From Octopus sinensis (lineage: Eukaryota), in assembly GCF_006345805.1 (NCBI RefSeq), contig NC_042999.1, forward strand, positions 148,180,001-148,244,000: a stretch of 64,000 nucleotides of DNA, in the 5' to 3' direction. Below the pieces are notes generated by a model. It searched no databases. It saw only the letters and a list, made by a program, of their open reading frames with translations, and had not been told where the DNA came from. Below, piece after piece: positions 20,239 to 60,125 of this stretch (positions are counted from its first letter, which is position 1; each line of letters begins with the position of its first letter). The translations under genes were made by a program, and so were the position numbers.

Positions 20239-20327
20239 CGCTGCTGAAGAAGGCTGTTGACCTACATGTTATATCAATTATGCATTGATATGAATTGAGC
20301 AATAAAGCCAGAAACATATGTACCGCA
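20239..20327 (+). ncRNA. Hammerhead-like motif with extended stem II
   Basis: gctg-CTGAAGA-aggct...(atatcaat/attgatat hairpin)...agcca-GAAAC-atat-GTA-ccgc. Confidence 0.65.
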
Positions 20328-20674
20328 ATATCCTTTGCATCCTGTTTTTCTTTTGATAAATATATCCTATCACCTACACCACTAGCTGGCATATACAGGT
20401 GCTTAGAGTTACGAAGGATTCACCCTGAATTTTATATATATATATATAATTTCGGCTGGTTATACTCAAAATTGCAAAGATAATGTGGAAACCGACTGAG
20501 GATAGAAAACTCCGAATGATCCGTCCTTGTTTTCCTCGTATCATCTGTCTGGATATTTTGTTGTCCCTTTTTTGTTTCACCTAACTGTCTGGATGTTTAG
20601 CGTTCTTATCCCATTTTTGTATTTTTTATATATAAAATATAGCAGCGTACGTACACTTTGGTCTCTTATATATA

Positions 20675-21206
20675 TCTATATATATAAAACTGTAGTTGTG
20701 TGAGTGTCTGTCCCCTTCGATTTAGATTCCTAACTACTCCCACATTTTGCGGTGCAGTTTAACCGAATTAGGGTATCTTATAGTCGTGATTCATATCGAG
20801 CCCGTCTGGGTATTAGCGCGCGTCTACGATGAGTCTACGATTTTAAAAATAATTTAACATCATTTTTTATTCCATTTTAATGCATATTTTTTCGTGTGTC
20901 GATGGCGGCGGAGTTGGCGTACATGCTCACATCTGCACCTATGTTGCTTCTCCCCCTTCTTCCCTCCCTCGTGAAGCTGTGGGGAAGGGAGTGTAAGGAA
21001 ATCAACGTCGTAAAGCGTTGTCAAGGAGACCAGCGTTCTTTTAGAACAACGACTGCATGGCTTGAAGACACTCAGTCAACGACTTAAAACAAAAATTACC
21101 CCCATTTTTTATTCCATTTTTAATGCATTTTTTACTATAACTCTCTAAAAATGCTTATATAGTTATTTCCCTTACAAACCCGAGCAACGCCGGGCGATAC
21201 TGCTAG
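20675..21206 (+). mobile_element. Non-autonomous Helitron
   Basis: A|TCTATATATATAAAA start; 3' hairpin CCCGAGCAACGCCGGG then CTAG|T. Confidence 0.8.
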
Positions 21207-22697
21207 TATATATATATATATATATATATATATATATAATATATAGTGTGTACCGTTGGCGATTTTTTTCCTCTGTCTTCCCTTCTCTGGATCTTTCCTT
21301 CTCCTATGTTTCCGACGAAGAGCTCCGCTCGAAACGTTAAACCCTCCTTCTTCCCTTCTTTCCTGAGCGTCCAATAATACTATATTTGTTCCACGTCCTT
21401 GCATTGTTGTGTTTTTTTGTGTTTTCTTGTTTGGATTAACTTTATATACCGCACGCTCACACGGACCCCGCCCCTCTGAGTGCCTTGGATACCAATTCAT
21501 GGATTTTTACACTTATGGATTACTGTTACCATTCTTCCGGAGTACGCCACTGAAATCGTGATTGGAAATCAAAAAACTTTGTCCGTGACTCTACAACAAC
21601 TTTTTTTCCTCGAACTTTTTTCCTCGAACTTTTTCCTCGTACTTTTTCCTCGTCCTTTTTTACCTTTCTTCTTCTACCTCCATTTTTCCACTTGTGTCGC
21701 CACCGCTTACACCTACACAAACATTCACCACTTCTCAACATGCCTGACTTGCACTCGTTCCTCCAACACCTTCAATCCCTTCCTGGCCGTTTTCTTGCTT
21801 TCCCCTCCCCCAATGCTTACAACCCGCAAAAAAACTTTCTCACTTACTTTTTAAAAAAACTCGCCAGTCTAGCCATCTCTCCTTTCTCAGCCGTTGCCTC
21901 CGCCATCACGTCACACCCCGTGGCTTCCTCTTGAAGTTCTACGCCACCCCCTATTCCTCCCCCTCATCGAACCCACCCTCGCCCGCACTTCCCGCCTCCT
22001 CATCCGTGCAACCATCCGTTCCACCCGCTCTCTCTTCCACTCCCTTGACCACCAACTTCCCCAGGCTTACCTCCTTCTCTTCTCCCTCTGCCTCCCACTC
22101 TTCACCCAACCTATTCTCCGCTTCATTCTTAATCTCAACCACCAACTTCACAATTTCCTCACACACAGAAAAAACAAAAAACTCCACCACCTCCTCAACC
22201 CTTCACCTCCTTCCCCTCCCATATCCCCTTCATCCTCCCCTTCAGCTCCCCCGACTCCCTCCTATCCCGTACCCACCACCCCCTCCCCTCCTGCACCCTC
22301 CACGGACCCAAGCACACCCAACCCTGACATTCCCATGCCTACTCCATCTTGACCCAACCATCACAACTCTCCTCCCCACACCTCTGCACTCCCTCTTCCT
22401 GACCCCACTAATCCCACCACTCTGCTTCCTCGCACTGTTGTCACTATACCCCCCAATCTCCACCTCTCCACTGCTGAGCGCTCTCTCCTCAGTAAGGGAC
22501 TCCGCTTCACGCCTCTCACGCTCCACTGTGACGAATTTGAGACTCGGACCGACGTCAACCAGTCCCTGCGCCGCCTCAAACTTTGCGCATTTTTCCACGC
22601 TTCCCCACAGCGTCACGACAATCAGGATTGCTTTTTGGAGCTGGGGCGCCGCCCATCCATCTAGACGCCGCCCCCAGGCCAATTCTGTAGCCTAGAT

Positions 22698-24416
22698 TTG
22701 TTCGTGAGCGACTGCAATGCGTTGGTCAACCGGTTCAACTTTAAAAAAAGACCTCTCCGAGACAACCTCACTCGGGCTGAATTGATTGCCCTTCGCAACC
22801 TCCGTCGCCGCAATGACATCGTCATCAAACCGGCAGACAAAGGCGGAGCAGTGGTGGTGTGGCGCGCGGACCTATACTGGGAGGAAGCGCTCAGCCAGCT
22901 TCAAAATCCCCTCTTCTATCGCCTCCTCCCCCTCCGATCCCACCTCTTCCTACCAACAGCGAGTGTCCTCCACCATCCACGACCTCATCTCCTCTTCTGC
23001 TCTCCTCCCCCCACCGCCACCAACTTCATCGTCCGCACACCCCGCACCTCCACCATCTATTTCCTTCCTAAAATTCATAAACCCAATAACCCTGGCCGAC
23101 CCATCGTTTCCGCCTGTAATTGCCCCACTGAACACGTTTCCTTATACCTCGACCGTATCCTGTCCCCCTTAGTCGCTGCCCTCCCATCCCACATACATGA
23201 CACCAACCACGCCCTCCGTCTCTTCAATTCCTTTTCCTTCCCTTCCAGACCCTCACACCTCCTCTTCACCTTAGACATAAAATCCTTTTACACGGTAATT
23301 CCCCACAACGACGGTCTCTTAGCCCTCCAGTACTTCCTCGACCGTCGTCCCGACCCTACGCCCAGCACCCCCACCCTTCTCCGCCTGACAGAGCTCGTCT
23401 TCACCCTCAACTGTTTCACGTTCGCCGGGGAAACTTACCAACAGTTGGCTGGGGTCGCGATGGGAACGAGAATGGGCCCCAATTTCGCCAATCTCTTTGT
23501 TGGCTACATTGAGGCCCAAGTATTCTCCCAATTCTCCGGGCCGACCCCAGAACTATACGGTCGCTACATAGACGACTGCATAGGCGCCACCTCCCTTTCC
23601 CGCGAACAACTCTGCCACTTCATCTCTTTCCTCTCTAACTTCCACCCCTCTCTCCAATTCACTTCCACCATCTCCAATACCTCTGTTAACTTCCTTGATA
23701 TCTCTCTTAGCATCGACCACCCCTCCCAATCTCTCACCACCTCCGCCTTCTTCAAACCCACGGATTCCCACCTCTATCTCAACTTCTCCTCCTCCCATCC
23801 CTTCCACACCAAACGGGCCATCCCCTACTCCCAGTTCCTCTACCTCCGACACTTGTGCAGCCGCGACCTGGATTTCGAGACCCAGTCTCAATACCTGGCC
23901 CGCCTGTTCAGACATCGAGGATACCCACCAACCCTTGTATTGAACGCCCTCGCCCGCGCTCGTCGTATCGACCGCACCACTGCCTTTCTCCTTCCTCTCA
24001 ACAACCGCCCAACCGCACCTACTTTCCCCTCCTTTTCCACCCCTCTACTATACCCCCTTCGTCGGAAGACACTATGTGTCTTCCGTCGTCTCCAGCTCGA
24101 TCCCACGATCCGCCCCATTTTCCCCAACCCACCCCAATCCTCCTTCAAACGAGGCCGGAATCTACGCGATCTCCTGGTCCGTAGCACCCTCTCTTCTTCC
24201 CCCTCAGCCCCACACGGATCCTTCCCGTACTCCAGATCCCGCTGCAACACCTGCCCCTTCATCACCAACACCACTGCTGTCACCGGTTCCAACCAGCGAA
24301 CTGTACGTATTGGACATCCTTTTACGTCTGGTCTCATATATTGCATTAAATGCAACCTCATTTTCACTCTACAGACCTATACCCCGCACGGACTCAACAC
24401 AGCCCCCTCCTCTTAG
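22698..24416 (+). pseudogene. Penelope-type reverse transcriptase with truncated GIY-YIG endonuclease
   Basis: IVIKPADKGGAVVVW, LPKIHKPNNPGRPIVS, LDIKSFYTVIPH, GVAMGTRMGPNFANLF, RYIDD, FLDI, KPTDSHLYL, RCNTCPFI, IYCIKC, then loss of the YIG half; upstream stop at 22693. Confidence 0.9.
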
Positions 24417-24529
24417 TGACTGCGCTCCACCTCTCGCAACAAGCAACTTTTTTTATTTTTTTACTTTATTAATTTTTATTTTATTTTATTTCTTCCTCCC
24501 CCCCCTTTTTTTAAATATTTGGCCTTATA

Positions 24530-58768: not shown

Positions 58769-58989
58769 TTAAGCATTTCGGCCCGGCCGGTACATACTTG
58801 TACCAGTCAAAGATTTTACAACCTGTGTGATGCAGTATAGTACCGCTCCGATTTTTCTGGTAAACATATAGCGCCAGACGTATGATCGGTGTGTATGACA
58901 CTATAATGAGAACTCAAAAGGATCGCATGCGTACAAATCCCACGTCATTACCGATTTGAGAAAAAATTCTTCCGGGTTGAAAGAGTTAA
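58769..58989. mobile_element. Possible piggyBac-like MITE
   Basis: TTAA at both ends with imperfect TIRs (GCATTTCGGCCCGG vs CTCTTTCAACCCGG). Confidence 0.45.
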
Positions 58990-59165
58990 GGAAATAACGT
59001 ATTTTATGAATTTAAAACAATCATATTAAAAGATATGTCAAAATGCTTCAGAAGCAAAAACTTCAACGTTGACGATGAGTAAACTGAGTTAATATTAAAT
59101 GGAGAATCTTGACAATTTCAAAAAAAGGAAGAGTTAATGTTTCAAGATAAGATAGAAATACTTAC

Positions 59166-59259
59166 AGGTGAAAACAATGATTATGGTTGCAGCTATTAAC
59201 GTTCCAAATAAACAGGGTACAGAACAACATTTTATATTTTTAGTTGATGATATTAACAT
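59166..59259 (-). CDS. Predicted first coding exon of the sulfotransferase (cytoplasmic tail and type II signal anchor)
   Basis: ttttcag|GAAA ATG...: MLISSTKNIKCCSVPCLFGTLIAATIIIVFT + T|gtaagt; the phase-1 donor matches the phase of the 44709 acceptor, giving 1200 nt (399 aa + stop). Confidence 0.8.
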
Positions 59260-59655
59260 TTTCCTGAAAATGATTGAATGGAATAATAATAACAAGCAGG
59301 ACTTGTGGAAACTCCACAGTGTAAGTCAGCATATTTGGAAACATTGTTATTATAGTACACATAAGCAAGGAATTTCAAAAAATTCTTTTGAAATCCAGCC
59401 ATTTAATTAAAACTGCTTTCAAATATAAACCAAATGATGTTAGAAGGCCTCGCTTATTTTCCTTCTTTTAATATGTTTGACAGATATGATGTGCTTTATA
59501 GTTTGAGAAAAAAGATGAATTGAAATAATAAAATTGATTCGCATATATATATATATATATATATATATATGTGTGTGTGTGTGTGTGTGTGTGTGTGTGT
59601 GTGTGTGTGTGTGTGTGTGTGTGTGTGTGTGTATGTGTGTGTGGGTGTATGTATA

Positions 59656-60125
59656 TTAAAGGAAGAGGAAAACAAAACTAAGGCAAGACAAGCTTATCAG
59701 ATCATTTAAAAATATTTTAATTAAAGTAAAGGTAAATCTAAATAAAGATAAGTAAAAGTAAATAATGTCTTACAACTGTTTCGGGGATATCCCAGGTAAT
59801 GGATCAATATATAACTTCACGGAAATACCTATAAACCTCCATACCTTCCGGAACCAGATGAACTATGAACCTTATACACCTATCTACTTTAAATTTTCTG
59901 TCTAGAACTTTCCTGCACATACACCTTATCTCTGATGATGGAATACCCAGTGTATGTTTATGTTGATCAACACGTTTATCCATTACCTGCGATATTCCAG
60001 AAACAGCTGTAGGACATTATTTACTTTTACTTTTCTTTATTTAGATTTACCTTTACATTAGTTACAATATTTTAAATGATTTCATAAGCTTGTCCTACCT
60101 TAGTTTTGTTTTCCTTTTCCTTTAA
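59656..60125. mobile_element. Inverted-repeat mini-element (arms 59656-59804 and 59978-60125) with an HHR at 59926-60017 (+)
   Basis: Arms are diverged reverse complements; CTGATGA-tggaata...tattcca-GAAAC-agct-GTA overlaps the right arm. Confidence 0.78.

Follow-up and report, generated by a model that had tools for sequence, protein, structure and literature searches.

The window analysed here, a 64,000-nucleotide (nt) stretch of the Octopus sinensis genome (contig NC_042999.1, positions 148,180,001 to 148,244,000), holds five predicted hammerhead ribozyme motifs whose two core halves are joined by a long stem II. We label them m1 (20244, + strand), m2 (29536, - strand), m3 (46163, - strand), m4 (59932, + strand) and m5 (32727, - strand). 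A sequence-only reading of the window had proposed them, and all five were confirmed where it had put them, with cores at 20244-20322 (m1), 29536-29443 (m2), 46163-46089 (m3), 59932-60011 (m4) and 32727-32670 (m5). Judged from their sequence and context, the motifs are type I hammerheads in the pseudo-long terminal repeats (pLTRs) or 3' ends of Penelope-like elements (PLEs) of the Hydra clade. They lie in the following features, where the extent of each truncated end is that covered by at least three family loci:

19877..20448, + strand: m1 truncated 3' end (3' untranslated region (UTR)/pLTR) of a Hydra-clade PLE
20240..20326, + strand: m1 hammerhead, CTGAAGA and GAAAC, predicted cut after GTA at 20322
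29364..29577, - strand: m2 truncated PLE 3' end
29437..29542, - strand: m2 hammerhead, stem I of 6 base pairs (bp), CTGAGGA, predicted cut at 29443
32511..32919, - strand: m5 truncated PLE 3' end
32665..32733, - strand: m5 hammerhead, decayed, 39-nt stem II, GCA where GTA is expected
45843..46170, - strand: m3 truncated PLE 3' end, with (TA)n at its end
46085..46166, - strand: m3 hammerhead, CTGATGA, stem III ACAGCTGT, predicted cut after GTC at 46089
59652..59807, - strand: m4 inverted 5'-truncated twin (hammerhead 3' half and tail), 89% identical to 59975-60129
59815..60267, + strand: m4 truncated PLE 3' end, ending at (TC)n(TA)n
59927..60016, + strand: m4 hammerhead, CTGATGA, stem III ACAGCTGT, predicted cut at 60011

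Between CTGANGA and GAAAC, the insert that would form stem II measures 60 nt in m1 (20251-20310, with an A.A junction), 75 nt in m2 (29529-29455; 77 nt in its family), 56 nt in m3 (46156-46101, with a G-C junction in the window copy), 61 nt in m4 (59939-59999; family forms of 49, 61 and 71 nt) and 39 nt in m5, where about 15 nt of the 54-nt family form are deleted. The core CUGANGA...GAAA...UH is kept by the families and intact in four of the five window copies; the m5 copy, with its GCA, is probably inactive. Stem I reads GCGG/CCGC in the m1 family, with one mismatch in the window copy, and TGTCT/AGACA in the m4 family, and has just two contiguous pairs in m3. The tiny palindromic stem III is ACATATGT in m1 and ACAATTGT in the m2 family; its palindromy, as first proposed, holds for the families and has been lost by mutation in the m2 window copy. 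The window copies are thus decayed, and m1 stem I, the m2 palindrome and both the GTA and the missing 15 nt of m5 are intact in family copies. Copies of the m3 family (window 46163-46175, - strand; loci L359-L386) also carry TTTAG, which resembles a splice acceptor, 6 nt before the core; together with the two-pair stem I, this recalls the helix I of Drosophila virilis Penelope, which is described as coupled to an intron.

Chance matches are ruled out as the source of these motifs by shuffles of the window and by pattern controls in the genome. The strict descriptor CTGANGA-N(4-150)-GAAAC-N4-GTH matches the window four times, whereas 200 block-wise dinucleotide shuffles gave 0.175 matches on average and 2 at most. 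A genome-wide descriptor with long spacers, which the sequence-only reading had put forward as a check, was run over 2.72 Gb as CTGANGA-N-GAAACANNTGTM with the reversed pattern as control; it counts exact matches only, so that decayed copies are missed, and may place a few loci in two bins. Spacers of 8-44 nt gave 6,149 matches (control 114), those of 45-75 nt 22,285 (control 90) and those of 76-105 nt 4,295 (control 70). Stems II of 45-105 nt therefore total 26,580 matches (control 160), about four times as many as short stems with the same stem III. An Rfam scan (E<=5) returned 80 matches and zero hammerheads, as expected if standard descriptors miss this form. The outcome is a very large natural set of hammerhead motifs that is invisible to Rfam and to short-spacer descriptors, and PLE families said to "lack" a hammerhead or to have half a core may deserve a second look with long spacers.

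Each motif belongs to one dispersed family, with first-look candidate copies numbering 1,459 (m1), 1,099 (m2), 758 (m3), 346 (m4) and 163 (m5), of which 40 per family were scored. The inserts differ among the five motifs because these are five separate families: nine of the ten insert pairs score no better than shuffles, and the exception, m1 with m4 (0/500 shuffles as high), appears by our reading to be due to a stretch of about 20 nt at non-equivalent positions. Within a family, the insert is conserved (71-96% identity over ~200 nt), so the idea that inserts differ from copy to copy stands between families and fails inside them. Most family copies share merely 150-500 nt, end at (TA)n and frequently have an inverted truncated twin, a hallmark of PLE insertion that the twin beside m4 exemplifies. 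In the genome, the short copies resemble 5'-truncated ends, frequently accompanied by inverted twins, and most of the tens of thousands of dispersed copies are dead, truncated ends. Variants shared between copies fall in 13 of 85 columns of the core and stem III and in 112 of 379 columns of the flanks (p=0.007), and private changes are about equally frequent in both, a pattern that fits selection on master elements followed by neutral decay of their copies.

The carrier element is seen in L037, an m1-family copy in which the end of a reverse transcriptase (RT), an endonuclease, the 3' UTR, the hammerhead and (TA)n follow one another, and whose endonuclease, used as a query, led to intact elements. 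In L211, a hammerhead with a stem II of 51 nt precedes an open reading frame (ORF) of 842 amino acids (aa; 2588-5113) by 243 nt and recurs 2.0 kb beyond its stop, both copies inside a 2.2-kb direct repeat (the pLTRs), and the motif is present in all five long-ORF loci fetched. The 842-aa ORF has a YRDD motif and is 28-41% identical to the best 120 of 517 relatives, one of them a named GIY-YIG endonuclease; its nearest named relative is from Argonauta (34%). Its features match the definition of the Hydra clade in the accessible text of Craig et al. 2021 (PMC8557442): RIRWA (RWA, not RWK) and ADKT are present and GxKF is absent; the linker has CxCx5C as CNCRCASEC, with no CCHH; CxxC and CxH, the motifs around E and N, occur as CQLCCIE and LINKRSEFKPSCIH; and no cysteine pair separates the GIY and YIG halves. 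Among aligned relatives, 28 of 36 have RWK and 34 of 36 DKT/S. Most relatives measure about 700-720 aa, and this ORF exceeds them by about 130 aa; low-complexity stretches rich in N and T lie between its RT and its endonuclease. The Hydra-type target (TA)n stands at the 3' ends of L037, L211 and the m3 and m4 copies, tandem pLTRs occur in L213 as well as L211, and inverted twins in L212, L215 and at window 59652-59807. The L211-type unit, at about 4.4-4.8 kb and with a 51-nt stem II, differs from the short Hydra element of <3 kb with a canonical short hammerhead; element length and long stem II are a variant trait within the Hydra assignment. The Nematis clade, our first reading from the protein motifs, was dropped once the Hydra definition was tested, and a Naiad origin, prompted by a note of a half core, agrees with no linked ORF, the endonuclease being C-terminal in every one of them, unlike the N-terminal Naiad arrangement.

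Besides m1, the other families can be followed to the same carrier. Family copies of m5 (L259 and L130) lie between the end of a Hydra endonuclease and a decayed Hydra ORF; one Hydra-type endonuclease recurs in four m4-family loci (L342 and L392 among them), with a continuous 3' UTR in L342; a family of 76-77 nt related to m2 (L308) has a Hydra endonuclease 424 nt upstream; and m3 is linked through an inversion junction at L389, a single locus of a subfamily related to it. Either by their own members or by a close relative, four of the five families are therefore tied directly to a Hydra endonuclease, whose end lies upstream in sense in L037, L259, L342, L392 and L308, and the fifth (m3) indirectly, and abundant 53-56-nt families and an 86-nt family are linked to it as well. 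A Neptune-type ORF stands upstream in sense in 0 of 155 long contexts. The hammerhead lies 188-2,416 nt behind the stop, and a strict sense hammerhead stands within 1.5 kb behind just 1 of 30 endonuclease matches because the 3' UTR reaches 2 kb. Other candidate links were rejected: m4 with a Neptune-type remnant at 60842-62157, since m4 copies end at the microsatellite and have their own Hydra endonuclease; m2 with the endonuclease of L080, since another family's hammerhead lies in between; and the endonuclease of L303, which is antisense and was not counted. These carriers support the proposal of PLE-associated type I hammerheads in several families, through both the pLTR location and the family copies.

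The same data speak to whether the motifs belong mainly to non-autonomous, non-coding families, retrozyme- or SINE-like (short interspersed nuclear element), with captured sequence in stem II. Short shared copies, the 3' UTR of L037, which is shortened relative to its kin, and the proposal, in the available text of a preprint (Li et al. 2026), that non-LTR retrozymes derive from pLTRs would all suit such families. Against them stand ragged 5' ends, inverted twins, the 3' (TA)n and the lack of any tandem array or head-to-tail monomers at the five window sites; the longest copies continue into endonuclease sequence, and m4 inserts differ by local duplication. The non-coding origin suggested by the sequence-only reading is not supported either by the long form in both pLTRs of intact coding elements or by Hydra endonuclease ends upstream in most families tested. 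We regard mainly non-coding families as very improbable.

Beyond this genome, a first metagenome search with the single 842-aa protein gave no match, and a search of sequencing runs, limited to contigs, listed none from RNA. A profile of 36 relatives retrieved 78 Hydra-type loci from metagenome contigs, which were scanned for structures with spacers up to 130 nt; their ranking followed similarity to a non-octopus protein, so that other long-stem lineages could be missed. Hammerheads occur in 63 of the 78, and their stems II measure 10-25 nt in 53 of 57 distinct motifs; the remaining four are antisense matches with a TTGA core, which we judge to be chance. The 15 loci without a hammerhead comprise four with short cores, three with bare long core pairs inside the ORF match and eight with none. 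Outside loci have a stop-to-hammerhead distance of 47-515 nt, median 131 (52 rows with duplicates), versus 188-2,416 nt here. File S2 of Craig et al. 2021 (PMC8557442), as far as available, lists every Hydra hammerhead, Hydra-1_oBim included, with a short stem II and a 3-10-nt loop. Hydra PLEs elsewhere thus appear to carry short stems only, in the loci and listings examined.

The available text of the same paper shows what the octopus motifs share with Hydra-clade hammerheads, namely the position at the 3' end or pLTR, the type I fold, a short near-palindromic stem III, a frequent non-canonical 10.1/11.1 junction (U.U there), (TA)n targets and protein motifs, and where they differ, in a stem II of 45-105 nt and a much longer 3' UTR. 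Similarly, the minimal PLE hammerheads of Cervera and de la Pena 2014 (PMC4209133, accessible parts) lie in pLTRs, have a palindromic stem III and proposed dimer cleavage, and form inverted pairs 100-700 bp apart in many variable families per genome. Their "larger than usual" helix II is 7-8 bp, unlike the long arm here, and most long families here are without their extra bulged nucleotide plus G10.1-C11.1 arrangement; a "long helix II" in the accessible text of a 2026 RNA-virus paper is 6-8 bp. Long core separations as here are recorded in Craig et al. 2021 for PLE-X1_sMoe and PLE-X1_sTam of spike mosses (loop II about 29-34 nt, flagged as deviating) and for the Naiad "HHR_half_core", with core halves 35-50 nt apart in eight Naiads, one of them from octopus. 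These belong to other PLE clades and are isolated cases, with no architecture, covariation or copy counts described in the available text. The non-LTR retrozymes of animals (Li et al. 2026 preprint; Cervera and de la Pena 2020; both as accessible) also have type I hammerheads related to PLE pLTRs, yet they are non-coding head-to-tail repeats, whereas the motifs here are dispersed truncated ends of coding elements. A covarying stem II of 45-105 nt as the dominant form is undescribed in the literature searched, though Luense et al. 2017 or the supplementary figures of Cervera and de la Pena 2014 could show examples. The pairing of PLE and hammerhead in Hydra was already known; the long covarying stem II as dominant form, with >26,000 matches in one genome, is a new, lineage-specific variant.

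Folding and alignment suggest what stem II is. The inserts are predicted to fold as one imperfect rod (z -1.3 to -3.6 for those of the window), and for the young element the hammerhead is the predicted minimum-energy fold. Pairing of stem I reaches 77-96% in three alignments. At the 10.1/11.1 junction, 48 of 58 long motifs selected by pattern are paired, 24 of them as G-C, and families m1, m2, m4 and m5 are mismatched. The predicted rod covaries in two of the three superfamilies tested: in that of 53-59 nt, reduced from 22 rows to 11, both partners vary in 9 of 25 pairs (24 cells), and in that of 82-105 nt (22 rows) in 16 of 33 (63 double-change cells), distal helices included, with 0 of 500 shuffles as high in either. 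The single-rod folds and this covariation bear out the expected structured stem II. No sequence is common to the inserts of all families. As regards a tertiary contact of loops I and II, no conserved apical loop is apparent among families.

The m4 forms of 49, 61 and 71 nt differ by local duplication at the hairpin tip, and a family with a 21-nt stem II has the same basal helix. Its endonucleases group with those of m4 (Shimodaira-Hasegawa-like approximate likelihood ratio test, SH-aLRT, 97) in a tree of Hydra-type endonucleases alone, and other long-stem groups in it unite m1 with m5 (94) and the 53-55-nt families (98). The "variable cargo domain" of the sequence-only reading is unproven, since single rods change by substitution and tip duplication, and 21-nt and 49-71-nt forms sit on one basal helix in a single lineage. 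No foreign source of any insert turned up, with no direct search for one made, and growth of stem II was likely elongation rather than capture of cargo. We consider it probable that the motifs are Hydra PLE type I hammerheads whose stem II was likely lengthened by tip duplications and kept for its pairing. A paired stem II would tolerate extension; tip duplications would then have built up while the 3' UTR of the same lineage expanded too. Stem II has likely lengthened in several lineages to an imperfect rod of 45-105 nt, under selection on pairing and not on sequence.

Alternatively, the long stem II could be a functional module, either a docking arm through which the element's own RT-endonuclease or a host double-stranded RNA-binding protein switches cleavage, or a family-specific RNA-protein tag. 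Pairing is kept out to the distal helices, long forms outnumber short ones and occur in several deep lineages, the youngest intact family has the long arm, and the hammerhead of the anole Poseidon PLE, in the accessible text of Frangieh 2024, cleaves only with its protein. Against a module stand the lack of a motif common to families, the wide spread of the short 21-nt sister family and the parallel expansion of the 3' UTR, and no A-to-G excess marks ADAR editing of template RNA (44/2,760 vs 37/2,535, p=0.74). We think a functional module unlikely, and give the same low credence to its fullest version, in which octopod Hydra elements repeatedly made stem II a family-specific arm of 45-105 nt that binds the element's or a host double-stranded RNA-binding protein and gates dimer cleavage. 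If true, it would mean >26,000 uncatalogued ribozyme loci in one genome, and the long arm may explain "half core" PLEs. Whichever holds, the 21-nt and 49-71-nt sister families and the intact young elements form a natural series for testing the role of the PLE hammerhead and protein binding by stem II.

Work by Luense and colleagues reportedly concerns small hammerheads that cleave as dimers. Here, 66 of 82 motifs, chosen with no condition on loop III, have a self-complementary dinucleotide in that loop and 6 more a wobble one (rows not independent), and stem III adds about 0.4 kcal/mol in a monomer compared with -6.4 to -11.1 kcal/mol for the 8-bp dimer duplex; as modelled, the palindromic stem III fits dimer cleavage. 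A tandem pLTR-ORF-pLTR transcript would join two motifs, whose palindromic stems III could pair as a double hammerhead, and cleavage after GUA or GUC would be slow and probably helped by the element's protein. Because copies extend about 80-260 nt beyond the predicted cut site, insertions would be copied from uncut RNA, as in the anole Poseidon element (Frangieh 2024, available text).

Several observations weigh against the reading that we favour. Among insert clusters, 13 of 34 representatives fall below z=-2 (median -1.5), and the m1 superfamily (13 rows), 90% paired, covaries weakly (4 cells, 14/500 shuffles as high), with no stem II recovered by RNAalifold; covariation as a check thus succeeds in two superfamilies and is weak in the third, and the shuffles behind it ignore relatedness, with distal helices drawn from the same sequences. 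The direction from short to long rests on outgroups because the endonuclease tree is a quick one of ~140 columns, which also holds two mis-framed rows, and the flanks of the 21-nt family resemble those of m4 no more than those of other families, their homology being undetectable. Most long stems measure 45-75 nt, which could mean a size constraint. As to the carrier, the 842-aa ORF yields no RT domain with Pfam, the m2 and m3 links run through relatives only, and when long contexts were tallied without selection, a Hydra endonuclease stood upstream in sense, within the flanks examined, in about 10 of 155 (a count that retains the L080 row, though it was dropped as an m2 link), with 11 more in other arrangements, several of them inverted twins; non-autonomous families may be compatible with so low a tally.

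The remaining point concerns catalysis itself, for families m1, m2, m4 and m5 are mismatched at 10.1/11.1 and m3 has a stem I of 2 bp, defects that could cripple it. The motifs may then no longer cut RNA and persist as a fold that binds protein or positions reverse transcription with the hammerhead sequence retained, as would also suit insertions derived from RNA spanning the cut site and the dispensability of cleavage for in vitro insertion of the anole element (Frangieh 2024, accessible text). Such a fold would leave unexplained why catalytic nucleotides, the GUH triplet and a dimer-compatible palindrome are kept across many families, and why the junction is paired in most pattern-picked long motifs; we hold it to be distinctly improbable.

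Other elements surround the motifs. A decayed PLE of another clade (21203-24416, + strand, and 26559-27395) retains RT plus GIY-YIG at 22461-24416, minimal hammerheads with the core CCGACGA at 21312 and 26909, and three 280-bp tandem pLTR copies. At 31654 (+ strand), a hammerhead with a TTGAAAA core (U3-A8 covariant) and a short stem II belongs to a young Neptune-type family whose loci L216-L219 have intact 784-aa ORFs, with a 15-nt stem II and the TTGAAAA core in 4 of 4. Broken Neptune-type remnants lie at 1067-1584 (- strand) and 60842-62157 (+ strand), the second just behind m4 as a separate insertion. Elsewhere in the genome, an abundant young family with a 16-nt stem II forms inverted pairs spaced by 1.7 and 4.2 kb (L472:511/2214, L473:474/4691); the intervening stretches lack a Hydra domain, and the family may be non-autonomous or of another clade. 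In the window, a Tc1-like transposon (27707-29337) adjoins m2; its terminal inverted repeats measure 227 nt and its transposase frame 287 aa. An open 842-aa RT frame of a non-LTR element lies at 13235-15763 (+ strand) with further fragments close by. The only host-gene-like frame noted is an open 378-aa sulfotransferase frame (Pfam Sulfotransfer_2) at 43604-44740 (- strand).

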